Of a DNA stretch of 21,395 bases, positions 3 to 14,998 are shown in pieces. The translations under genes and the position numbers were made by a program. The stretch is taken from positions 1-21,395 of the forward strand of contig DATGZA010000034.1 of the NCBI GenBank assembly GCA_035297365.1. Direction: 5' to 3'. This DNA comes from Nitrososphaeraceae archaeon. GTDB lineage: Archaea > Thermoproteota > Nitrososphaeria > Nitrososphaerales > Nitrososphaeraceae. The notes beneath the pieces are model-generated. The model saw only the letters and a list, made by a program, of their open reading frames with translations, made no database searches and was not told the origin of the DNA. How positions within the stretch are numbered: position 1 is the first letter of the stretch; each line of letters starts with the position of its first letter.

Positions 3-311
3 CCAAATATAGAATTCAAAGAATTTGATTCAATTGAAGAGATACAAAATGAAGGGGATACTCTTTACATTTTGGATTCGGTAGAAAAAATAAAAAAAGT
101 GATGGTAATAACCGATTTAGATCAGTTGGCTACAGACAAAATATATTCGGTACATGATTTTGATTTAGCTACCAACCTCAAGATCCTAAAGAAAGTAGGT
201 GTGATAAAAAACATAATTATTCTTGGCGTGCCCATGAATATTACACATAGTCAGGCATTACAAGAGATTAGAGAAAAAATTATATCCATTTCAATCTCAA
301 AAAATGACTAG
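3..311 (+). CDS. Hydrogenase maturation endopeptidase-like protein (HycI/HybD fold), 5'-truncated by the window edge
   Basis: Frame is open from base 3 (PNIEFKEFDSIEEIQNEGDTLYILDSVEKI...YSVHDFDL...IIILGVP), so the track's start at 72 is internal. ILDSV and SVHD match the Asp and S-x-H metal-ligand motifs of HybD/HycI proteases. Adjacent to a [NiFe] large subunit. Confidence 0.7.
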   Translation, partial: PNIEFKEFDSIEEIQNEGDTLYILDSVEKIKKVMVITDLDQLATDKIYSVHDFDLATNLKILKKVGVIKNIIILGVPMNITHSQALQEIREKIISISISKND

Positions 312-1557
312 CACAACTCATACACGGATCATATGCCCTTATTATTTTTTCAAGCTCATGATAAATAAAGTGTTTATCTTTGTCTAAAATGTTAGGTAAA
401 AGATTTTTTATATCGTTTTCCATCTTAATTTGATTTTGTGCTGTTGGTATTACAAAGTTAGCAAATTGTACTTTTCCTTCTCTGTTAAGTTCAACCATAT
501 GATACAATGTACCCCGAGGAGCCTCTATTACTCCAACTCCTTTACCTTCTCTTGTTTTAATTTCTGGTGCTTGCTCCGGGTTAAATTCATTTTCTTCAAG
601 AATTTGAATTGTATGATCTATACAATGTAAAATTTCAATAGATTGTGCAAGGTTATTATGATAAATATTGTTTGATGGAAAGACTTTAAGGATTTCAGAT
701 AAATCTTTTTTTGAATCCTTATGAATAGATTCTCTATTCAAGTTCAACCTAGCCAAAGCTCCTACCATGTATTCTTTGTCCCTGAATCTAAATCCAGTAG
801 CCTGAGAATATGGAATAATAATTCTTTCTAGGTGATTCCAATATTCATCTTCTTTTATTTTCATTCCATCTGAAGAAGCGATTTCACCCTCCAAAAAACT
901 AAAATCCTCTGTAACTAAAGATACGAAAATGGACTCTCTACTAAGGTCAAAATTGCATTCATAAAATATTTTTATGAGTTCAAGAACCGTATCCCTAGTT
1001 TCTTTAAATTGTGACAACAATTCTTTCAAATTTTCTTTTGAAGGTAGATGAGAAAACTGTCCAACCTTTTCAAATGTGGGGTGAACAGCCCTTCCAGCAA
1101 CTATTTTCGAAAGATTATTTCCAAGACTTTTTACACTGAAACCTTGTTTGATTAGATAATTTTTTGAATCGTCAAAATCAAATACGGAATCGGTGTTAAA
1201 GACATCAGGAAGACAGAAGAAGTACAAATGTAAAGCGTGATCCCTTATCATCATCCCATATACAGATAACTTTCTTAATAATTCAGTTTGTTTTGTTGTT
1301 GTGATTTGGAGACATTTTTCAATTGATTCAATGCTACAAGTTAAGTGTGCTATGCTACATGTACCACATATCCTAGAAACAAATTGTGGAACACTAGAAT
1401 AATGTCTATTTCGTACTGCTTGTGTATAAAATCTTTTATTTTCATTTATCTTTAATTTGACATCTTCTACTTTACCGTTCCTAATTTTTACTTCAATGTC
1501 TGCATGACCTTCTGTTTTGCTTATTTGTTCTATATTGATATCGAAACTATCATGCAT
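280..1557 (-). CDS. [NiFe]-hydrogenase large subunit, group 3 (3b-like)
   Basis: L1 RICGTCSIAH, L2 YDPCMSCASH plus a 7-aa tail (FLRLKWI); also KTEGH (proton-transfer Glu), GRAVHP, EAPRGTLYH and PTAQN. 425 aa, typical of cytosolic group 3b/HydA. Confidence 0.95.
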   Translation of the reverse strand: MHDSFDINIEQISKTEGHADIEVKIRNGKVEDVKLKINENKRFYTQAVRNRHYSSVPQFVSRICGTCSIAHLTCSIESIEKCLQITTTKQTELLRKLSVYGMMIRDHALHLYFFCLPDVFNTDSVFDFDDSKNYLIKQGFSVKSLGNNLSKIVAGRAVHPTFEKVGQFSHLPSKENLKELLSQFKETRDTVLELIKIFYECNFDLSRESIFVSLVTEDFSFLEGEIASSDGMKIKEDEYWNHLERIIIPYSQATGFRFRDKEYMVGALARLNLNRESIHKDSKKDLSEILKVFPSNNIYHNNLAQSIEILHCIDHTIQILEENEFNPEQAPEIKTREGKGVGVIEAPRGTLYHMVELNREGKVQFANFVIPTAQNQIKMENDIKNLLPNILDKDKHFIYHELEKIIRAYDPCMSCASHFLRLKWI

Positions 1558-2029
1558 TTACAAGACCAAATTCCTTTAGATAACTATCTAATTTTGATAA
1601 AAATAATCTTTCATCCATTGGACATCCTGAAATGAAATCGTCAACATTTACAAATTCTGAAATCGGTGATACTTTGCTTCTATGTCCAAATTGGACTAAA
1701 ATAGGGAAAATCTCATTTTTTGTTGAATCATCAAAGAAATTTCTTTGATTAGCTGGACTTCCTGTACATGCACAACTTCCTATTGCAATTAATTTTTTTG
1801 AATTCTTCCTTATCTCTTTAAGAAATTCAAGCTCTTTGTCATTTGAAATTGCTCCTTCTACAAAAGCCAAATCTAAATTAGTAAAATCGTTTTTCCCTTT
1901 TAAAGTTCTAAAATATTTAAATTCCAATAGATCTTTCCACTTGAAAAAATTATCATTCATTAATTCTATGAATACTATCGTACTGTCTTCGCAACATGTA
2001 AAGGAAAACCAGCCAGTTTTAAGTTTCAT
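1550..2029 (-). CDS. [NiFe]-hydrogenase small subunit, minimal (proximal Fe-S domain only, NuoB/HoxY-like)
   Basis: Motifs TCCEDS, FVEGAI, IAIGSCACTG and ISGCP. ATG at 2029 (159 aa) is preferred over TTG at 2086 because TTTAAATA lies 26-33 nt upstream. Overlaps the large-subunit start by 8 bp. Confidence 0.9.
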   Translation of the reverse strand: MKLKTGWFSFTCCEDSTIVFIELMNDNFFKWKDLLEFKYFRTLKGKNDFTNLDLAFVEGAISNDKELEFLKEIRKNSKKLIAIGSCACTGSPANQRNFFDDSTKNEIFPILVQFGHRSKVSPISEFVNVDDFISGCPMDERLFLSKLDSYLKEFGLVNA

Positions 2030-2054
2030 TGACACATTAGCAATAATGCTATCG

Positions 2055-2062
2055 TATTTAAA
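2055..2062 (-). promoter_or_regulatory. Archaeal TATA box (TTTAAATA) for the hydrogenase small/large operon
   Basis: TTTAAATA at -33..-26 from ATG 2029. The same octamer sits at similar spacing before the 14998 and 18111 starts. Confidence 0.55.
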
Positions 2063-2256
2063 ATAGTTCACCTTTTTGATTCCCAATTTTCATTTTAAAA
2101 TACTGGTTTTGAAAATTATATTAGAGCATTTTATTATTTGGATTACGTTTGTTATTTTATTAATTTCTAAAAATCGAATAACAGCATAAAGGTCACCAAC
2201 AAGAAAATTATCTTTTTCCAAAGAAATTTGAAACAGTTCTACATACCATAACAACA

Positions 2257-3312
2257 ATGGAAGAAAAGAGAATAAGTCTTGCACACGGAGCAGGAGGTGT
2301 GATTATGAATAACATGATTAAAAAGCAAATCTTGAAATACTTTAGTTTAAACCATCATGAGGTTTCATTAAATTGTCTAGACGATGCCGGTATAACTGAA
2401 GGTATCGTTTTTACTACAGATTCTTATACAGTAAAACCAATTTTTTTTCGTGGAGGCAATATTGGGGTAATGTCAGTTGCGGGAACCGTAAACGATATTG
2501 CAGTAATGGGTGGAGAACCATTAGTACTATCATGCAGTATGATAATTGAAGAAGGCTTCTCAATTGAGGAGTTAGATGTAATTATGAAGAGCATTCAAGA
2601 AACATGCATTAAAGCTGATGTGGATATCATTACAGGAGACACCAAAGTTCTAGAAAGAAATGCTTTGGATAAGCTAATTATTAATACTTCTGGTGTTGGT
2701 AAAAAAAGTCAATATTTAGAAAAAAATCTAAAAATTGTAAAAAGATACAGGCCCAACTTTAATTCTGATTGGTTACTTGATTCAAATATTCAGAAGGGCT
2801 ACAAAATAATAATTTCAGGAACACTAGGTGATCATGGGGTTGCTATAATGTCTGCAAGAAATGAATATGGTTTAGAGAGTCAAGTTGAATCAGATGTTGC
2901 ACCATTAAATAATTTGATTAAAAAAGGGCTTGATGTAGGAGGTATAGTAAGCATAAAGGATCCTACGCGTGGAGGACTTGCAAATCTTTTAAATGAATGG
3001 TCAGAGAAATCAAAAACTGGTTTTATAATTCTTGAAAAAGATATTCCCGTTAAAGAAAGCGTAAGAAGTGCATTGGGATTTCTTGGACTTGATGTGTTAG
3101 AAATAGGAAATGAAGGAAAAATTTGTCTAGCGGTAATACCGGAAAAAGCAGAAGAAATACTAGGTATCTTGAGGGAAACACCAGAAGGTAAGGATGCGAT
3201 GATAATTGGAGAGGCAACAGATGAATTTGATTTACCGATCTTGGAAACTCAGATAGGCGGTAGAAGAATCCTTGCAAAACCTGCAGGAGATCCTATTCCC
3301 AGAATATGCTAG
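2257..3312 (+). CDS. hypE: Hydrogenase maturation protein HypE (carbamoyl dehydratase)
   Basis: LAHGAGG, FTTDSYTVKPIFF, GTVNDIAVMG, TGDTKV, DPTRGGL and C-terminal PRIC. Confidence 0.97.
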   Translation: MEEKRISLAHGAGGVIMNNMIKKQILKYFSLNHHEVSLNCLDDAGITEGIVFTTDSYTVKPIFFRGGNIGVMSVAGTVNDIAVMGGEPLVLSCSMIIEEGFSIEELDVIMKSIQETCIKADVDIITGDTKVLERNALDKLIINTSGVGKKSQYLEKNLKIVKRYRPNFNSDWLLDSNIQKGYKIIISGTLGDHGVAIMSARNEYGLESQVESDVAPLNNLIKKGLDVGGIVSIKDPTRGGLANLLNEWSEKSKTGFIILEKDIPVKESVRSALGFLGLDVLEIGNEGKICLAVIPEKAEEILGILRETPEGKDAMIIGEATDEFDLPILETQIGGRRILAKPAGDPIPRIC

Positions 3313-3322
3313 GTGATATCGT

Positions 3323-3592
3323 ATGTTTAGAGGAGTTGAAGATCGTGTCAACAAAAAATTAATATGTAAAGTTTGTGGATATATCGAATATAATTTTCCA
3401 AAACATCACGAAATCGCTATGAGATGGATTACAACTGGTAGTTTTAATAAAGAAGAACTTTTGAAATGTCAAAAATGTGAGTATTCAATACCAATCTTAA
3501 TACATTGTAACGTGTCAATGTTTTATTCTGAAGGTGATTATCTTGATTTACCTGAGTTTACAAAAAAAGATTATCAAGATATAGACAAATAA
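3323..3592 (+). CDS. Small metal-binding protein with two tandem CxxC...H(H/C)xxxM fingers
   Basis: CKVC...PKHHEIAM and CQKC...IHCNVSM. AGGTGA Shine-Dalgarno overlaps the hypE stop; 10-bp gap. Confidence 0.75.
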   Translation: MFRGVEDRVNKKLICKVCGYIEYNFPKHHEIAMRWITTGSFNKEELLKCQKCEYSIPILIHCNVSMFYSEGDYLDLPEFTKKDYQDIDK

Positions 3593-3599
3593 AGAGATT

Positions 3600-3965
3600 A
3601 TGTTGTCATTTTTCTGGCATTTAAAATTTGCTGTTCATATGTTTGAGATTGCTAAATCTGAATTGAATAAAAATAATTATGTAATAGCTAATGCAGTCAT
3701 TAAAACTTTTACAGAGATAATAGATGCCTATCTATCGAAGGCGAATATTATTATTGATGAAGCAAGTCTAGATGGTTGGAAAGAAAGAATCCATTGGATG
3801 AAAGAAAATAATCATGAATTATTAAATGAATGGAAAATGGTGAATTCTCTTTGTTTTAAGATACAGAGAGAAAAATATGACAACAACGTTGCAATAAAAT
3901 TAATAGAAATAGTTCAAAATAGACTAAATAAGATTAGATCAGATGACTATCGTGATTACTTTTAA
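3600..3965 (+). CDS. Hypothetical all-helical protein, HEPN/PaREP1-like
   Basis: 7 bp after the previous gene. Pattern A-x2-EL-x3-NY-x2-A...EIIDAYL resembles the first two HEPN helices. No clear Rx4-6H RNase motif. Confidence 0.55.
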   Translation: MLSFFWHLKFAVHMFEIAKSELNKNNYVIANAVIKTFTEIIDAYLSKANIIIDEASLDGWKERIHWMKENNHELLNEWKMVNSLCFKIQREKYDNNVAIKLIEIVQNRLNKIRSDDYRDYF

Positions 3966-3975
3966 ATTGATTGAT

Positions 3976-4629
3976 TTATTTGGTCAACTTTTTAACTACA
4001 AGGCATTTTGCCCATTCCTCGCATAAATCAACTGCAAATCTTGCTTCATGAATGCATCTGCCAACACCTATAACTCCATGGTTCAATAATATTATTACTC
4101 CAAATGGAACTACACAATCAAATTTACTTGCCTTACCCACCAAATTTCCTAATCCCTTAGACCCGAGTTGTTTGTACTCTACTATCAAGGGATTATCATG
4201 TAATACTTTTGGAAAAGCGATGGATGGTTTTTCCGCTAATTTCCATATACCTTCATGATCTATATTCAATAGTTTGGAAGACAGAAAATATCCTGATGTA
4301 TAGGGATTATGAACGTGACATACTGCATTAATATCCGATCTGTTTTTATATATTTCAGTGTGAAAAGGAACTTCGATAGTTGGTTTAAGGTTTCCCTTCA
4401 AAACGTTTCCATCTAAGTCGATTAATAATAGATCGTCTGAAGTTATATGTGATCTTGGATATCCTGATGGGGTGATCCAAATTTGATTATCTAACTTTGA
4501 ACGAAAACTATGGTTTCCACCACCAACCGAAACCAACCCATTGGAAAAAAAATACTTTATAGTAGAGATTAATTCATTTTTAAAGATATCTTCGTCATAT
4601 ACTTTACAAATATCACAAAACATCTTCAT
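3976..4629 (-). CDS. Class II aldolase/adducin family protein (FucA/AraD/MtnB-like)
   Basis: GGNHS, ITPSG, KPTIEVPFH, HVHNPY and LLNHG Zn/phosphate motifs. Confidence 0.9.
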   Translation of the reverse strand: MKMFCDICKVYDEDIFKNELISTIKYFFSNGLVSVGGGNHSFRSKLDNQIWITPSGYPRSHITSDDLLLIDLDGNVLKGNLKPTIEVPFHTEIYKNRSDINAVCHVHNPYTSGYFLSSKLLNIDHEGIWKLAEKPSIAFPKVLHDNPLIVEYKQLGSKGLGNLVGKASKFDCVVPFGVIILLNHGVIGVGRCIHEARFAVDLCEEWAKCLVVKKLTK

Positions 4630-4925: not shown

Positions 4926-5321
4926 TTAATTTATAAAATTCTCTTTTTCTTTTTGAATTAAAGGAATAATTTTTTTCATTATTATTTCATCAAAATTACT
5001 TTCCTCAAAATTTATAGTTAAAAATAGATAATAATTTTCATTGATTGGGATTATAGATCTGCCTAACTTTTCATATTTTCCAAATGCATATGTTAATTTT
5101 CCTATTTTTGGTTCAAATTTTAATCTTGATTTATGTCTAATTATGGCATTAACTGCAGATTCATGCATCTCTTCTTTAGAGAGGAATGGTTTTAATCCTT
5201 CTCTATATCGTTCATTTATAATATCACCGTTTTGATTGATTATGCTAACCCATCTTATAGACTGGTCACAACTGATTATATTTTCAATAAAAATAGAATG
5301 AAATTCATTATTTAATACCAT
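4926..5321 (-). CDS. DUF6659-type (roadblock/longin-like) protein typical of Thaumarchaeota
   Basis: IRWVSIINQNG...REGLKPFLSKEE...IGKLTYAFGKYEKL pattern recognised from this expanded family. Confidence 0.75.
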   Translation of the reverse strand: MVLNNEFHSIFIENIISCDQSIRWVSIINQNGDIINERYREGLKPFLSKEEMHESAVNAIIRHKSRLKFEPKIGKLTYAFGKYEKLGRSIIPINENYYLFLTINFEESNFDEIIMKKIIPLIQKEKENFIN

Positions 5322-6517
5322 TTCTTAGTTAGGTAATTTTTTTAATCGTAATAAAAAAGTTATGAATGAGTATTATCATGAATAATAAATTCTTTCACGA
5401 CCCATTAATCTATTACTCTAGCAACATTATTACTACCAGCAATAATATGAGTCGCAGAAGATTTTTTTGTCTTGCTTGATTGGTTAGTGTATCGTATTTG
5501 CTTCTTTTTATAGATATGCAAGAACAAGGATTATTCTGCGGTAAATAAATAAATGAATTACAGCAAACATTCTGGGTATTTTTTCCTTTCTTCGTCTATC
5601 TTTTTATTTATTTACTACCGTTAAAATACTTATTATTATTTTGTTCTTGAAAGTAATCCACCAAATGGGCTTGAAGATTCTCCATAGGTTATGTTATATA
5701 CTTCTTTTTTTCTCTCTGCATTAGATTTATTAAGGTTAGTGCCGCAAAAATACATTATAGAGATTTTAGTGGTAATTATAATATACCATTACAGGCATTT
5801 AAGTGTTTGTATTTAAGTGTTCAACAATAGAGAACTTTTTTGTGTTGTATTCAAATTTTGACTATAAAATAATTAAAAAATACCTATACTATAAAACGGG
5901 AATTGCAACTATTATACTTATATTGTTTAATTTCTTTTATTCAGTTAATTAATTATTTTATTAATTATTAGTATGTTATTTTTCCTTCATTATTTTGTTC
6001 ATAGAGATCTACATCTGATTATAATCTTATGATAAGTACTGGTATAATTTCTATGTATCTACAAGTACAACTTTTACTAATCATCTTATCGATTTTATTC
6101 ATGAAAAATTACCAATCACAAGAGTAGCTTTAATATATAGCAAATAATGAATAGTTCTTTAAGTATATAGAAATTCTTATATAAGAATGAACTACAAAAA
6201 CAGTACACCAGGTTAGGATTAAAAACTTGTATACGACTGTTAGATATTTTTAAACAATTTTGAAAAAAATGGTTTCCAAGAATTAACATAGTCTAAAGTC
6301 TTGTGTGTGCTCCACGTATGAATGATAAAAATATTTAACATAAATTTATGTCAGCAATTTTATTGATTCTTTCTCTGTTTTAACTTACTGTACCTCTGAT
6401 TAAGGACCCGATTGCTCTTTATCCTTCAAGTTGCCATGTATAAATATTTGAGAATTATATCCATGTTACACTCTGGAAAATAATCCGATTAAATAATAAA
6501 GAGGCCTTTCTTTCTAT

Positions 6518-7693
6518 TTGGTTATATCAAAAATGGACTTCATGAGTAATTTAAAGAATACAGCTGTAAATGAATTGTTAGAAAAGCCGATTCTTGCAGA
6601 TGAAAAAGATTCTATTTCCACGATAATAAACACACTTATCGAAAATAATGCCTACGATGTATTTGTAGATCTGTCTGGAAAGGTAGTCGGATACAATGTT
6701 CGTGATATCTTGGGAGTTAGGGATATCGCTTCTTCAAAACTTTCTGCCATTGGAAAGATGATCCCTACTTTATCTCCAACTAGTAAAATTTCTGAAGCAG
6801 CTAGAATATTGAGTTTGTATAGACGCAGGGCACTCCCAATAGTAGATAAAGAACATATCGTCGGTCAAATATCTGCAAAGAAAATTGTGCAGAAGATAGA
6901 CGAATATATGAAAAATGAGAAAAGTATGGAATTTCCTGCGTCAGAGCTAATGTCAGGAAATCCGATTGTAATATCCAGTAAGGATACAGTATCTTCTGCA
7001 AGGACAATTATGAGAAGGAGACGGATAGATCATTTGCCAGTAATTAGTAGTGAAAAGCTCTCTGGGATTATAACTTCAACGGATATTATGGTAACAATGT
7101 TACCTTCAGAAAGGATAGGTAGAAGAACCCTAGGAGTAGATGCAGGTAAGTCAAGATTTGATATGTCGGTATCTGGAATAACTAATAAAGATGTTATAAC
7201 GGCAGATATCACTGATAAAATTAAAACTGTGATCTATTTAATGACCAAAACTGATTCTACTTATTGTATTATGAAAGTCTCTGATGAAGTTCAAGGCATA
7301 ATTACTTATAGTGACGTTATTTCCTTACTTCAGGAAGAAGAAAAGTTTGAAAGTATTCCTATTTTTCTTATGGGGCTGCCAGATGATCCTTTTGAAGCGG
7401 AGCTAGCCAAATCCAAATTCAAAAATATAGTTCAATACATGAAAAAGGTTTATCCGGATATAGAACAAGCAAAATGTCGTATCAAAATGAGAGAGACTCC
7501 TTCTCCGAGAAAACGATATGAAGTTACGATAAACATTATGTCAACACATTCTAGTTACCACTACTCTGACATAGGCTGGGATCTTAAAAATATTTTTGAT
7601 CAAATAAGTAATGCTATGAAGAAAAAAGTTGCGCAGAGAAGTAAACGGACACAAAGGAATACTATGAGAAGAGTGGAGATTCCACAAGAGTAG
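6518..7693 (+). CDS. Four-CBS-domain protein fused to a C-terminal HPF/RaiA-like domain (candidate ribosome hibernation factor)
   Basis: CBS motifs (RALPIVD...GQISAK; DHLPVI...GIITSTD; VQGIITYSD). From about 7355, a beta-alpha-beta-beta-beta-alpha pattern with RYEVTINI and GWDLKNIFDQI, then a basic tail. The start could be ATG 6533 or 6542. Confidence 0.8.
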   Translation: MVISKMDFMSNLKNTAVNELLEKPILADEKDSISTIINTLIENNAYDVFVDLSGKVVGYNVRDILGVRDIASSKLSAIGKMIPTLSPTSKISEAARILSLYRRRALPIVDKEHIVGQISAKKIVQKIDEYMKNEKSMEFPASELMSGNPIVISSKDTVSSARTIMRRRRIDHLPVISSEKLSGIITSTDIMVTMLPSERIGRRTLGVDAGKSRFDMSVSGITNKDVITADITDKIKTVIYLMTKTDSTYCIMKVSDEVQGIITYSDVISLLQEEEKFESIPIFLMGLPDDPFEAELAKSKFKNIVQYMKKVYPDIEQAKCRIKMRETPSPRKRYEVTINIMSTHSSYHYSDIGWDLKNIFDQISNAMKKKVAQRSKRTQRNTMRRVEIPQE

Positions 7694-9118: not shown

Positions 9119-10657
9119 ATGAAATTTAAGACTAAAATACTCGGTATAGAATCTGGGGGAAGACCTGTGATCACTTTGAGTAAGGATGATGCCTATGAGC
9201 TCGGAATAAGGAGCGGAGAACGGGTTAAACTTTTGTATGAAAATAAAGAAATGATTGTAATAGTAAATATTGTTACTAAATCTGTTCCAAAAGGAATTGC
9301 CGGCATTTATGATGAGTTGAGAACAATCGGAAACATTAAGGAAAGTAGTGTTATAGAGATAGAGGTAATTGATTTTCCTCAGTCCATTTATTTTATACAG
9401 AACAAATTGAAAAAAGGTAAGTTAAATTTCAAAGAGATCTTTGAAATAATAAAAGATGTTGCAAATGGAAATCTAAGTGAATCTGAAATTGCTGCTTTCT
9501 TAACTGCCCTTGACCATCAGGGCTTAGATATCGATGAAGCAACTAGTCTTACGCTGGCAATGGTTGAGACAGGCAAGAAGTTACAAATAGCAAATAAACC
9601 AATATGTGACAAGCATTCTATTGGCGGAGTTCCTGGAGATAAAATCACACTTCTTGTAGTTCCTATAATTGCTGCAGCAGGATTAACTATTCCAAAAACT
9701 TCTTCTCGTGCCATAACTTCTGCTAGCGGAACAGCAGATAGGGCTGAAATCCTCATGTCCGTTAATCTTACAATAGAACAGATGAAGATGGTTGTAGAAA
9801 AAACTAATGGTTGTATTGTATGGGGAGGGTCTCTGGAATTAGCACCTGCGGATGATAGGTTCATACAAGTTGAATATCCTCTTTCAATTGATCCTCTCTT
9901 ACTCCCCTCAATCATGGCAAAGAAAAAGGCTGTCGGAGCAAATTATTTGGTATTAGATATTCCATCAGGACGGGGCACAAAAGTAAAAACAACCGGTGAC
10001 GCAGATCAGTTAGCGAAAGAGTTCATGGAGCTTGGAAAAAGATTGGAAATAAAAACTCAATCAATAGTATCATTTGGCGAACAACCGATAGGTAATACTA
10101 TAGGACCAGCTTTAGAGGTCCGGGAAGCCCTAGAAGTACTCCAAGGAAATCAAGTTCCCGATCTTATAGAAAAAGCAATAAACATTTGTGGTTTAATATT
10201 CGGTATGACCGGAATAGGGGGAAAGGAGCTTGCTCTAGATATTTTGAAAAGTAGAAAGGCAGAGAAAAAAATGAAGGAAATAATATACAGGCAAGGTGGT
10301 AATTCAGAGATTCAAATAGAAGATATAAAAATTGGAGACCAAAAGCTAGAAATTCATGCGGAAAATTCGGGAAATGTTCTGTGGTTGGATAACAATATTA
10401 TTGTTACGATTGCGCGTTTGGCTGGTGCTCCCAAAGATAAGGGAGCTGGAATAATTATTCATAAAAAAATAGGACAAAAGGTGAAGAAAGATGATAAATT
10501 ACTTACAATTTTTGCGGAAAAGACAAATAAGATTCACAGCGTAGAAAAGATGGTGACAGAAATAAAACCGTTTCATATTGGTGATAGACAAGAAATGATA
10601 ATTCATACGTTTCTAGATATTCCTGAACCTAAAAAAACGTTCATCTTGGAACGTTAG
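9119..10657 (+). CDS. AMP phosphorylase (archaeal NMP phosphorylase, thymidine phosphorylase family)
   Basis: Extra N-terminal barrel domain, DKHSIGGVPG, PKTSSRAITSASGTAD, LAPADD and ARLAGAPKDKGAG; 512 aa. Confidence 0.93.
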   Translation: MKFKTKILGIESGGRPVITLSKDDAYELGIRSGERVKLLYENKEMIVIVNIVTKSVPKGIAGIYDELRTIGNIKESSVIEIEVIDFPQSIYFIQNKLKKGKLNFKEIFEIIKDVANGNLSESEIAAFLTALDHQGLDIDEATSLTLAMVETGKKLQIANKPICDKHSIGGVPGDKITLLVVPIIAAAGLTIPKTSSRAITSASGTADRAEILMSVNLTIEQMKMVVEKTNGCIVWGGSLELAPADDRFIQVEYPLSIDPLLLPSIMAKKKAVGANYLVLDIPSGRGTKVKTTGDADQLAKEFMELGKRLEIKTQSIVSFGEQPIGNTIGPALEVREALEVLQGNQVPDLIEKAINICGLIFGMTGIGGKELALDILKSRKAEKKMKEIIYRQGGNSEIQIEDIKIGDQKLEIHAENSGNVLWLDNNIIVTIARLAGAPKDKGAGIIIHKKIGQKVKKDDKLLTIFAEKTNKIHSVEKMVTEIKPFHIGDRQEMIIHTFLDIPEPKKTFILER

Positions 10658-12484: not shown

Positions 12485-13966
12485 ATGGTTACCATGTCAA
12501 CTAAAAGTGATCAAGGTCTTAATGTAACATCAGAACAATTAAAGAAAAAAATGGAAACAGAAGAACCATTAATAATTTTTGATATAGGAGATTTTCAAAG
12601 ATATCAGTCAAAACATATCCCTGGATCTAGTTTTGCTTCCTGTGATGAAGAGTCTAAGAGAAATATAATGCCACGATTGCCGAAGGATATCGAGATCGTT
12701 TTGGTAGGTGACACGGATGAATATCCAAAAGAAATGGCCAAAGCCATGAATTTGATGGGATTAAAAGCAAAATATCTTGAAGGAGGTTTGCAGTCATGGA
12801 AATGGGAAATGTCAAAATCGGAAGAAAAGAACTTGACACCTCAAGACCTAAAAAAAATCCTCGATGAGAATATTACTGCTACGACAAGAGGTAATGAAAT
12901 AATACTTTTAGATGTAAGGCAACCCGATGAATTTGAAAGTTGGCATATTGAAAACAGTCATAATATACCACTAGAGAAAATTACATCATCTCTAAATTCT
13001 TTTGATAAAAAAAGGGAAATAGTTACAATTTGTCCAAGGGGAAATAAAGCGATGATAGCAAAAGCGATGCTACAAAGATATGGATTTACAGCTATGGCAT
13101 TGTCTGGCGGTTTAAGTGCATGGACTACTGCGATTGAAAACCCCTCTACCGAATTTGAAATTATAGATAAAAATGGAAACAAAAAAATAGTAAAAGTTGT
13201 GCAAATAAGAAGAATAGGAAAGGGATGTTTATCTTATTTTTTATCATTTAAAGGCGAGTCCATTGTTATAGATCCTGCATTCCCAGTAGAAAATTATACA
13301 GACCTTGCAAAAATAATTGATTCGAAAATTATCAAGATTTTTGATACCCATCAACACGCAGACCACATATCTGCCGGAAAATCATTGGCTGATATAACAG
13401 GAGCAGATTATTATGTCAGCGATCTAGAGGAATATTCTGAAGAATACATGGGATCAAATATCAAGAAGATAAAGGAAGGTGATATTGAAAAGATAGACGA
13501 GATAGAAATTAAAATATTAAACACCCCAGGACACACAAATGGTAGTCTCTGTTTTCTAATAGGTTCAAAACTTTTGTTTACAGGAGACACTCTTTTTGTT
13601 GATGGGATAGGTAGACCTGATTTGAGAGATAAAGCAGTAGAATATTCAAAATTGCTTTATGATACTATACATGACAAGGTCTTGACTTTGGACGAAAATA
13701 CTGTTGTACTTCCTGCTCATACACAAAAAGGTATTAATTCAAAAATTTTATTATCAGGATTTTTGAAAGAGATAAAAAATAATAATAAAGATTTATTTTT
13801 GTTAAGTGAAAAAGAATTTGTAGATACTATTGCGTCACTAACAATGCCTACTCCTCCCTCCTACAAAGATATAATATCTATAAATAAATATTTCAAAGCA
13901 AAAGATATAGATATGAACAAGATTAATGAATTGGAATTTGGTCCTAACAGATGCATTATTAAATGA
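12485..13966 (+). CDS. Rhodanese-rhodanese-metallo-beta-lactamase fusion (persulfide dioxygenase/sulfurtransferase-like)
   Basis: Rhod1 (HIPGS...YLEGG, no catalytic Cys), Rhod2 (LDVRQPDEF...ICPRGNKA...LSGG), MBL THQHADH, TPGHT, GDTLF, LPAH and C-terminal GPNRC. Confidence 0.9.
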   Translation: MVTMSTKSDQGLNVTSEQLKKKMETEEPLIIFDIGDFQRYQSKHIPGSSFASCDEESKRNIMPRLPKDIEIVLVGDTDEYPKEMAKAMNLMGLKAKYLEGGLQSWKWEMSKSEEKNLTPQDLKKILDENITATTRGNEIILLDVRQPDEFESWHIENSHNIPLEKITSSLNSFDKKREIVTICPRGNKAMIAKAMLQRYGFTAMALSGGLSAWTTAIENPSTEFEIIDKNGNKKIVKVVQIRRIGKGCLSYFLSFKGESIVIDPAFPVENYTDLAKIIDSKIIKIFDTHQHADHISAGKSLADITGADYYVSDLEEYSEEYMGSNIKKIKEGDIEKIDEIEIKILNTPGHTNGSLCFLIGSKLLFTGDTLFVDGIGRPDLRDKAVEYSKLLYDTIHDKVLTLDENTVVLPAHTQKGINSKILLSGFLKEIKNNNKDLFLLSEKEFVDTIASLTMPTPPSYKDIISINKYFKAKDIDMNKINELEFGPNRCIIK

Positions 13967-13984
13967 GGATGTGATAATATAGGT

Positions 13985-14383
13985 ATGAAAAAATTTGTTG
14001 CTATGTTTCTCTGTATGATATTCCTATCGTCAACATTAACATCATTATCATTGACAAATGCAAGTGCTCAGACAGAACCTAAAGTAAATGTTATGTACGA
14101 ATGCGGAACATTAGACGTAAACACTCAGTTAAATGTGAACGGGTTTGAACCGAATAGCAGTGTATCTTGGAAAGTTATTACTCCTACCGATGAAACAGGT
14201 TCTATATTTGGATACTTTGATACCAATAGCACCGGAGGATTTAAAGAATTTACTCATTTGTCCGAATTAAAGCACGCAGATTATTCAGTTCAATTCTTTG
14301 ATGATGCTGATAAGAATGGTCTTCCAGATAAAGGAAAGAAAATATTTACTGCTAAAATGTCTCCGCCAGTTCCATGTAAATAA
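13985..14383 (+). CDS. Secreted beta-rich hypothetical protein
   Basis: Sec signal peptide MKKFVAMFLCMIFLSS...ASA|Q, DADKNGLPD (DxDxNG calcium-loop-like) and two Cys in the mature part; 18-bp gap from the upstream gene. Confidence 0.8.
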   Translation: MKKFVAMFLCMIFLSSTLTSLSLTNASAQTEPKVNVMYECGTLDVNTQLNVNGFEPNSSVSWKVITPTDETGSIFGYFDTNSTGGFKEFTHLSELKHADYSVQFFDDADKNGLPDKGKKIFTAKMSPPVPCK

Positions 14384-14836
14384 TCTAGATTAAATGATTA
14401 GAAATTTTTTAATTCATCTAGATTTTGTCGAAATTTGTTTTTTAAAAAAGATATCAATTATTTTTATGTATATAGAATAAATCAACATAAAAAATTGCTC
14501 AATCTTCATCATAAAATAAATAGATTATAACAATTGAGAGCATCTGAACTGTTGAAGCTCCAATAAATAAGAAGATACTGGTGCCGGAAAGTAACAGCGT
14601 AGATTCGATTCATAGCCAAAGATATAAAACAAATTTGAAGAATTATCAAAAGAAACTCATAGACACGATACATCGCAATTCAATTGATATAGAAGATACA
14701 AAGAAACTACTGACCTGAACAGCTTCAATACCCTACATCAGTAGCACTTGATTTTTTTTCTCCTACATATTGAAGCCTAGGAGAGATGAGAAAAAGACAT
14801 TTTATCTAATACAATTTAATTTTTCAGATTAGTTTC

Positions 14837-14998
14837 CTACAAGTGATTTAAATGAGCATTAATATGCTCATCACAATAATAATTATTACATTCAGGACAT
14901 TGTGATGAAGGTACTTTAGTACAGCCCCTTATTGCACATTTCAATCCATGTAGTGGTCGTCCTCTAGTCTCATCCCATAAATCAGCTATGGCGCCCAT
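14837..14998 (-). CDS. 53-aa Cys/His zinc-finger microprotein (AN1/B-box-like), not in the ORF track
   Basis: MGAIADLWDETRGRPLHGLKCAIRGCTKVPSSQCPECNNYYCDEHINAHLNHL*: C-x4-C-x7-C-x2-C-x4-C-x2-H-x3-H-x2-H. GC is higher than the flanks and TTTAAATA lies at -29..-22. Confidence 0.8.
   Translation of the reverse strand: MGAIADLWDETRGRPLHGLKCAIRGCTKVPSSQCPECNNYYCDEHINAHLNHL

Follow-up and report, generated by a model that had tools for sequence, protein, structure and literature searches.

Closest described hydrogenases

Ammonia-oxidizing archaea are usually regarded as ammonia-only specialists. We analyzed a 21,395-bp window, which is the entire contig C34 of the 2.52-Mb assembly (110 contigs, 30.5% GC) of a Nitrososphaeraceae archaeon, and identified in it the genes for the large and small subunits of a [NiFe]-hydrogenase. 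On sequence grounds the locus probably encodes an intact, active, cytosolic two-subunit enzyme of the hyd2 type, within an island of a Nitrososphaeraceae ammonia oxidizer, and its structural genes would have been exchanged horizontally with DPANN archaea; our confidence is high for the identity and the horizontal origin of the enzyme. The island hints that some nitrifying archaea also handle H2.

The closest described system is hyd2 of candidate phyla radiation (CPR) bacteria (Jaffe et al. 2020, BMC Biol, PMC7304191), described there as a 3b-related enzyme on a long branch, whose small subunit averages 164 aa and which lacks beta and gamma subunits, with PF07992 and Fe-S proteins near a subset of the loci and a function called 'uncertain'. 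The enzyme type as such is thus already published as hyd2, and is uncharacterized. The locus studied here is like hyd2 of CPR in the clade of its large subunit, in the length of its small subunit (159 aa), in the absence of beta and gamma subunits, and in that some of the loci have genes for HypC-like proteins, PF07992 flavoproteins and small Fe-S proteins nearby. It differs in its host, an aerobic autotrophic ammonia-oxidizing archaeon, in a small subunit with both a CC and a C-x-C pair, and in an island with hypE, hypD, hypC and hypF and the lineage-specific genes c11, c12 and aldolase-like, none of which occurs in the DPANN and CPR loci. The clustering with CPR sequences, the truncated small subunit and the missing beta and gamma subunits assign the window enzyme, as judged by comparison, to the hyd2 clade; that the CPR loci used here are the hyd2 sequences of Jaffe et al. 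we infer from the matching description (PMC7304191).

With canonical group 3b enzymes, such as Pyrococcus furiosus SHI and Thermococcus kodakarensis Hyh (9nez, 9e15, 5yxy), the window enzyme shares the best-scoring family, the L1 and L2 Cys motifs and the C-terminal processing tail. Unlike the HydBGDA/HyhBGSL complexes, it misses the equivalog cut-offs, has no HydB or HydG, and has a short small subunit in place of one of ~240-270 aa.

For ammonia-oxidizing archaea, the only hydrogenase-like genes named in the accessible text of a 2023 review are those of the four-subunit 3b enzyme in thermophilic Nitrosocaldus and of the non-catalytic Ehr complexes (PMC10432482). The 'Ca. Nitrosocaldus' 3b enzyme is likewise a cytosolic [NiFe] enzyme of an ammonia-oxidizing archaeon of the same class (PMC10432482), but it belongs to a different clade, its operon reads HydB-HydG-HydD(254-270 aa)-HydA-protease, an arrangement that we verified in the Nitrososphaeria loci L108 and L112, and its hosts are thermophiles. 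Elsewhere, 3b/3d enzymes are mentioned in hot-spring 'Nitrososphaerales', the accessible text giving no architecture (PMC11094006), the enzymes of Aenigmarchaeota and Micrarchaeota are labelled '3b' (PMC8407114, PMC8561730), and four-subunit CPR enzymes are treated in PMC10811913. Our literature search found no paper on a two-subunit or hyd2-type hydrogenase in Nitrososphaeraceae, PMC8627038 and bioRxiv 2020.08.06.239558 contained nothing to the point, and supplementary tables of metagenome-assembled genomes (MAGs) may already list such genes as '3b'. What appears new is the occurrence of the enzyme in mesophilic ammonia oxidizers, in a co-inherited island that includes lineage-specific accessory genes. 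An intact catalytic island in mesophilic soil Nitrososphaeraceae would give globally important nitrifiers an alternative source of electrons or a redox valve, by a route open to experiment, and a hyd2 enzyme in a free-living O2-respiring host would allow its partner and direction to be investigated outside a symbiont-host pair.

A minus-strand unit of two hydrogenase genes

The hydrogenase genes and their immediate neighbors are as follows.

280..1557, minus strand: [NiFe]-hydrogenase large subunit, hyd2-type (3b-related), 425 aa; PF00374 98.9 bits (cut-off 25.8)
1550..2029, minus strand: small subunit, proximal-cluster domain only, 159 aa; PF01058 62.5 bits
~2054..2066, minus strand: TATA-like element cTATTTTAAATAc, by direct reading, ~31 nt upstream of the small-subunit ATG, within the 227-nt divergent intergenic region 2030-2256
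2257..3312, plus strand: hypE, divergent from the hydrogenase genes; TIGR02124 355.2 bits (cut-off 251.6)
3..311, plus strand: C-terminal 102 of ~135 residues of a hydrogenase maturation endopeptidase, cut by the contig start and convergent with the large subunit

Open reading frames (ORFs) and profiles confirm the initial annotation in its description of a two-gene minus-strand unit with a divergent hypE and a convergent protease. It had also stated that the unit holds no HydB/HydG or HoxFU gene, and Pfam and NCBIfam scans found none in the window. The motifs that it quoted (MHDSFDINIEQISKTEGH, RICGTCSIAH and SVHDFDL) are all present. The end of the unit, which it had set at 2062, did not hold: this is not a start codon but a position inside the TATA-like TTTTAAATA at ~2054-2066, and the small subunit starts at 2029.

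The first of these motifs lies in the large subunit, as does RICGTCSIAH, at residues 62-71, and DPCMSCASH, which leaves a C-terminal tail of 7 residues; C64, C67, C412, C415 and H418 are invariant in the large-subunit alignment (A1). The cysteine pairs of RxCGxCxxxH and DPCxxCxxH, together with the PF00374 match, identify a [NiFe] large subunit, and the host genome has one PF00374 locus only. Among the NCBIfam models ShyA ranks first (270 bits), followed by HydA (210), VhuA (142) and FrhA (135); the two leading scores fall far short of the equivalog cut-offs of 700 and 880. Against PDB profiles, sulfhydrogenase 1 alpha 9nez (261 bits) and 5yxy (252) are followed by Mvh (182), the NAD-reducing enzyme (156) and Frh (150).

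The small-subunit ORF spans 1550-2086 on the minus strand and extends to a TTG at 2086 that is probably unused. The true start is almost certainly ATG 2029, yielding 159 aa, because ORF residue 21-22 is the first to align with the NCBIfam models and a length of 159-161 aa is shared by 13 of 16 Nitrososphaeraceae homologues. The 3' end (stop 1550-1552) overlaps the beginning of the large subunit (ATG 1555-1557) by 8 nt, and in all 16 Nitrososphaeraceae loci inspected a stop codon terminates the small subunit at its short length. The protein covers positions 5-154 of the 261 positions of the HydD profile and is without the ~100 residues matching positions 155-261, the C-terminal part of HydD that we take to be the binding region of the medial and distal clusters.

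The conserved cysteines, numbered from ATG 2029, are C12, C13, C86, C88 and C136. Conservation among 69 small subunits is 100% for C105 and C155, 96% for C31, 68% for C32 and 42% for C107, in the numbering of the TTG ORF, from which 19 is subtracted for the 159-aa protein. The N-terminal motif occurs in two types, FTCCEDS and FTCDEGC, and both CC and C-A-C are present in every Nitrososphaeraceae small subunit and in most Aenigmarchaeota rows; a few small subunits (L064, L065) contain three cysteines in all. Some small subunits of CPR and Micrarchaeota (L064, L065, L061, L069) have either three cysteines only or C-S replacing the N-terminal C-C, and therefore the family has no conserved fourth ligand for its single cluster. 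That the extra cysteines bear on oxygen tolerance is speculation. Two hyd2-type small subunits, P0271 and P0299, carry an intein (PF14528/PF14890), which in P0271, 70% identical to the window small subunit, sits directly after the cluster-binding motif FTCCEDS.

The TATA-like element is identical in the loci L005 and L006, and 16/16 Nitrososphaeraceae loci inspected have an A/T-rich TATA-like element at a comparable spacing. It is compatible with an archaeal promoter whose leader is short or absent, which in DNA of 30% GC is weak evidence. A bacterial-type promoter scan gave 21 sites against 24.6 expected; like the bacterial terminator scan, it is uninformative for an archaeon.

Relatives and probable horizontal exchange

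The protein-database relatives that share 57-78% identity carry names from Nitrososphaeraceae, Aenigmarchaeota and Micrarchaeota, and the 80 loci yielded by a genome scan belong to Nitrososphaer(ac)eae, Aenigmarchaeota, Micrarchaeota, Woesearchaeota, Nanoarchaeia and many CPR groups. The resemblance to CPR and DPANN enzymes, which the initial annotation had pointed out, is real: the large subunit is 63-65% identical to those of Aenigmarchaeota and 45-58% identical to those of Micrarchaeota and CPR. A contrast set of 18 3b-type large subunits from other families of the class Nitrososphaeria is 29-35% identical to the window's.

We built one tree of 133 rows with FastTree and another with IQ-TREE (LG+C20+F+G4, posterior mean site frequencies) from 49 hand-picked rows spanning the groups, with 84 of the 133 left out; the root consisted of 3-7 more distant non-3b group-3-like sequences from the same class. 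The Nitrososphaeraceae sequences are monophyletic (support 100 in each tree) and sister to an Aenigmarchaeota clade (96 in FastTree, 98 in IQ-TREE), and this pair is nested among DPANN-labelled rows in both trees. The hyd2 clade is supported at 96-98 in FastTree and at 99, with a stem length of 0.79, in IQ-TREE. The large-subunit tree, which had been proposed as a check, thus places the enzyme in a long-branch clade with DPANN and CPR, apart from the canonical four-subunit 3b enzymes of Nitrososphaeria. As the best reading of both trees we propose horizontal exchange of the structural genes with DPANN archaea, the closest relatives being Aenigmarchaeota, in line with the horizontal acquisition that had been suggested. 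The apparent transfer between DPANN and Nitrososphaeraceae bears on the question of which organisms are neighbors in soil.

Electron partner and direction

In the mechanism that we propose, H2 would be split or made at the Ni-Fe site, and electrons would travel via the single [4Fe-4S] cluster of the small subunit directly to a separately encoded acceptor docking there. During starvation or when oxygen levels fluctuate, H2 uptake would then supply thiols, ferredoxin or NAD(P)H as low-potential reductant; we give an even chance to uptake being the more likely direction in an aerobic autotroph.

The gene fusions of relatives point to candidate acceptors. Among 38 matches to longer proteins with a small-subunit domain, 26 are fused to a thioredoxin-reductase-like PF07992 domain (several named Aenigmarchaeota) and eight to FNR-like PF00175/PF00970; the remaining four are two proteins with inteins and two with PF01058 only. 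In the five non-intein fusions that we read (three thioredoxin-reductase-like, two FNR-like) the flavoprotein is N-terminal, and the three thioredoxin-reductase-like ones have CxxC and lack the HRRxxR motif. Their fused domain presumably resembles the ferredoxin-dependent, NADPH-independent thioredoxin reductases. The small-subunit part of the thioredoxin-reductase-like fusions of Aenigmarchaeota and other archaea matches the window's at 49-62% identity, in an alignment that spans 97% of the length; unlike in the fusions, the window small subunit stands alone, with no dedicated flavoprotein gene linked. The CPR loci L064 and L065 encode two small ferredoxins and a Pyr_redox_2/Rubredoxin_C reductase immediately upstream, on the strand of the hydrogenase genes. 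Because of the fusions in relatives and these upstream genes in CPR loci, the acceptor may tentatively be sought among flavoproteins (thioredoxin-reductase-like or FNR-like) and small ferredoxins, a choice in which our confidence is somewhat short of even. The canonical thioredoxin reductase of the host genome (contig C15) has normal NADPH motifs.

Four soil libraries recorded as RNA, from four studies, contain 16 short contigs of 151-320 nt that match the hydrogenase locus with ~92-100% identity, in the genes for both subunits, hypE and the protease; one of 170 nt is without a mismatch. The intergenic stretch 2041-2280 is uncovered in 4/4 of these libraries, whose Logan contigs are short, and uncovered parts prove nothing. 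These matches are only a hint of transcription.

A number of points weigh against the proposed reading. The contigs of the RNA libraries may be carried-over DNA, and we know of no biochemical data for any hyd2 enzyme. The trees have few root sequences, all from the same class, and the transfer between DPANN and Nitrososphaeraceae may have run in either direction. No acceptor gene lies within the hydrogenase island. A thioredoxin-reductase-like gene at C40:5070-6040 (CxxC, no HRRxxR) was rejected as a dedicated partner, since it is frameshifted and its distribution is unlike that of the hydrogenase: orthologues of at least 79% identity occur in 24 of the 34 genomes of genus g11, none of which has the hydrogenase, and are missing from the four g13 carriers (counts that include G090 and G216, which stand among low-identity paralogue rows only). 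Searches of the host assembly with the proteins of a 96% relative did not find hypC, hypD or hypF. Since protease residue 34 is the first on the contig, the simplest reading of this is an assembly gap, and maturation in this strain would depend on genes presumed to lie in that gap. HypA was not found in the host genome or in five other carriers, and the only HypB-like match of the host genome is UreG.

Apart from its candidacy, the C40 gene is intact in relatives, as an ORF of 324-330 aa, and may here be a pseudogene or an assembly error.

The same enzyme might instead run in reverse, as a fermentative redox valve that makes H2 from reduced ferredoxin or flavoprotein when oxygen runs out, a role that has been put forward for group 3b enzymes of other aerobes. 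Group 3b enzymes are described in the accessible texts as bidirectional, O2-tolerant redox valves (PMC10432482, PMC11094006), and the DPANN and CPR carriers as fermenters (PMC7304191, PMC8561730); a [NiFe] site with one low-potential cluster would also have no built-in direction. However, the island suggests no fermentative donor such as pyruvate:ferredoxin oxidoreductase, and the thioredoxin-reductase-like fusions of relatives would fit a flow from H2 to thiols better than H2 evolution. We consider this role plausible but unlikely. A wider form of the uptake reading would make some soil ammonia-oxidizing archaea facultative H2 users: a DPANN island would have been refitted for air, with extra cysteines at the proximal cluster, c12 replacing the missing HypA and aldolases for cofactor or ligand supply, and at times of ammonia shortage electrons from trace H2 would enter the pools of thiols, ferredoxin or NAD(P)H. 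So extended, the proposal is quite improbable.

Maturation genes and integrity of the island

The sequence left of base 1 is unreadable in this assembly because the window is the whole contig. Two relatives with 96% identity (L005 and L006, on contigs of 1.8 Mb and 104 kb) reveal this flank, which holds a 135-aa protease, a 260-aa aldolase-like gene, hypD, hypC and hypF; in L005 there are additionally insertion sequence (IS) fragments and a Usp gene. The full island would comprise about 11 genes: aldolase-like A, c11, c12 and hypE; the small and large subunits; and the protease, aldolase-like B, hypD, hypC and hypF. It is common to a minority of Nitrososphaeraceae. The large-subunit gene is carried by 17 of the 238 species genomes of the GTDB family and by 12 of the 116 high-quality ones, with 10 of 25 in the genus of the host (its own genome included), 4/72 in g13, 2/2 in g15 and 1/14 in g18.

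The protease fragment contains SVHDFDL, overlaps the large-subunit 3' end by 32 nt and is 97% identical to residues 34-135 of the L005 protein. D19, D58, H84, D85 and D87 are invariant in the family alignment (A2). The five best Foldseek matches of its AlphaFold2 model (predicted local distance difference test, pLDDT, 82) are all HybD/HycI (5ija, 1cfz, 2kml, 2e85 and 5zby; E 1.5e-5 to 7e-4, template modeling score 0.54-0.67), and hhalign against canonical 3b proteases gave a probability of 77.6%. In sequence searches the fragment stays under the thresholds, with 18.3 bits for Pfam HycI against a cut-off of 23, no TIGR00072 match and no hydrogenase-protease match among the PDB hidden Markov models. 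Its predicted HybD/HycI membership is by fold and metal ligands, not by sequence profile.

A decaying relic of an old transfer, inactive in this strain, would be consistent with the absence of the gene from 221/238 family genomes, with the IS fragments in the island of the nearest relative (L005) and with the failure to find hypC, hypD and hypF in the assembly. The contig break, however, falls exactly where the hyp genes should come next, the reading frames of the window are all open and its metal ligands all retained, the large subunits of the family are 68-96% identical across four genera without internal stops (except the fragmentary G228), and the whole accessory set is co-retained, which makes a relic very improbable.

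The IS fragments of L005 belong to IS5-, IS630- and IS1182-family transposases (7009-7407, 13062-13304, 14138-14860) and are positioned inside the hydrogenase island, in the hypE/small-subunit and hypC/hypF intervals; such fragments may explain the assembly break at this place. One bin, G203 (73% complete, 4% contamination), has two island copies (large subunit, c12, c11) on contigs C83 and C115, the loci L011 and L012 being from the same MAG. Both large subunits are ~71-72% identical to the window's, and the double island reflects either a duplication or the binning together of two strains.

Absence of a diaphorase in relatives and host

An ordinary four-subunit group 3b enzyme, with hydB/hydG and a long hydD just outside the window as the initial annotation had allowed, could be hidden in so far as the contig ends within the protease gene and the locus is partly missing. 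Against this, the flank in L005 and L006 has no hydBG and no full-length hydD, a profile search did not find HydB in the host genome, HydB is absent from 5/5 other carrier genomes (93-99% complete), and the small subunit stops short in 16/16 Nitrososphaeraceae loci inspected. Of the two HydG-like matches in the host genome, the one on contig C82 is PyrK (258 bits, above the cut-off), adjoining PyrD, and the one on C75 is a generic FNR-like protein. We regard a four-subunit enzyme at this locus as extremely improbable.

Clustering of the ORFs of 81 sources (the 80 loci of the genome scan plus the window) recovered the large subunit from 80 of them. A short small subunit (152-217 aa, median 161) came from 69 and the convergent ~132-aa protease from 62, several of the misses being loci cut at the large subunit. 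There is no HydB- or HydG-like family among the 41 annotated recurrent neighbor clusters, singleton ORFs being outside the annotation. The canonical operon was verified in two loci of the contrast set (L108 and L112), which encode HydB/AsrA-like, HydG/AsrB-like, HydD, HydA and TIGR00072 protease proteins; their HydD proteins have 270 and 254 aa and cover profile positions 4-259.

Host genome

The host is a Nitrososphaeraceae ammonia oxidizer: its genome is 97.1% complete with 0.46% contamination, and a profile search located archaeal AmoA on contig C5 (392 bits), which agrees with the assumption of the initial annotation that the contig comes from Nitrososphaerota. Although the closest relatives of the hydrogenase outside Nitrososphaeraceae are DPANN, contig C34 is not a mis-binned DPANN fragment, a case to which we give next to no probability, because the nearest public loci, at 96% identity, are labelled Nitrososphaerales or Nitrososphaeraceae, one lying within a 1.8-Mb Nitrososphaerales contig, and the GC content of the hydrogenase locus (30-31%) matches the 30.5% of the genome; the contig also bears plastocyanin-like, NirK-like multicopper oxidase, DPS and AMP phosphorylase genes.

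Accessory genes of the island

Three further genes follow hypE.

3323..3592, plus strand: c12, an 89-aa Cys/His-rich protein downstream of hypE, of no Pfam or NCBIfam family
3600..3965, plus strand: c11, a 121-aa helical protein downstream of hypE
3976..4629, minus strand: aldolase-like A, a class II aldolase/adducin-family protein of 217 aa; PF00596 118.9 bits

Across the 238 family genomes, c12 is present in 16 of the 17 hydrogenase carriers, and c11 and orthologues of aldolase-like A (at least 63% identity) in 15/17 each, while none of the three occurs in the 221 non-carriers, other genomes having only aldolase paralogues of at most 42%. The carriers without accessory genes are G190 (all three) and G228 (c11 and aldolase-like A), and in both the large subunit is partly recovered, as residues 102-425 at a contig end and as residues 1-409 with two internal stops. 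The pattern is co-inheritance with the hydrogenase and not a statistical test, because kin genomes are not independent.

The invariant residues of c12 are C15, C18, C49, C52, H28, H29, H61 and C62. A large protein database holds 29 homologues, and all named ones are from Nitrososphaer(ac)eae. The N-terminus of HypA is its MHE nickel site; c12 begins with MFRG and has no TIGR00100 or Pfam match, and we rejected it as HypA despite its two CxxC pairs. With regard to a rubredoxin or desulforedoxin type, Pfam at E<=0.01 gives weak zinc ribbons only, and the Atlas leads score 0.79-0.83, where Atlas sets its own mark at 0.9. The AlphaFold2 model of c12 (pLDDT 70) has no Foldseek match in the PDB at E<=0.001, only weak zinc ribbons. 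In a complex prediction with the large and small subunits, c12 as the scored partner reached 0.48 (runs 0.48, 0.00 and 0.48) against 0.19 for the best control, and 0.00 when the large subunit was replaced; the runs share at least 54% of contacts, with a partner pLDDT of at least 62. The mark of the tool is reached by 116/157 solved complexes and by 2/215 mismatched pairs; scores at the mark and up to 0.60 are those of 18/157 solved complexes and both mismatches, and a pass in this range is more often wrong unless the guess was likely beforehand. The prediction, which the tool itself rates as 'weak support', gives a faint hint that c12 may contact the large subunit as a maturation factor would.

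The Atlas leads for c11 are HEPN/PaREP1-like only (0.89-0.93). A second aldolase-family gene, aldolase-like B (~260 aa), lies at 9651-10433 on the minus strand of L005, and the two aldolase-like genes flank the Nitrososphaeraceae island. To our knowledge, aldolase-family genes have no known role in hydrogenase clusters, and a link of the two to ligand or cofactor supply is pure speculation.

Other features of the window

A stretch of ~1.2 kb (5322-6517) has no ORF of at least 60 aa on either strand and lies in the most AT-rich part of the window (GC 0.25 at 5001-6000); tRNA and Rfam scans of the window, this stretch included, gave no matches. An AMP phosphorylase is encoded in this ammonia oxidizer at 9119-10657 on the plus strand (TIGR03327 561 bits, above the cut-off). 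Between 11674 and 18713 lies a cluster of metal and redox genes encoding a VIT1 iron transporter, a rhodanese-metallo-beta-lactamase fusion, a plastocyanin-like protein, a NirK-like multicopper oxidase and a DPS-type ferritin.

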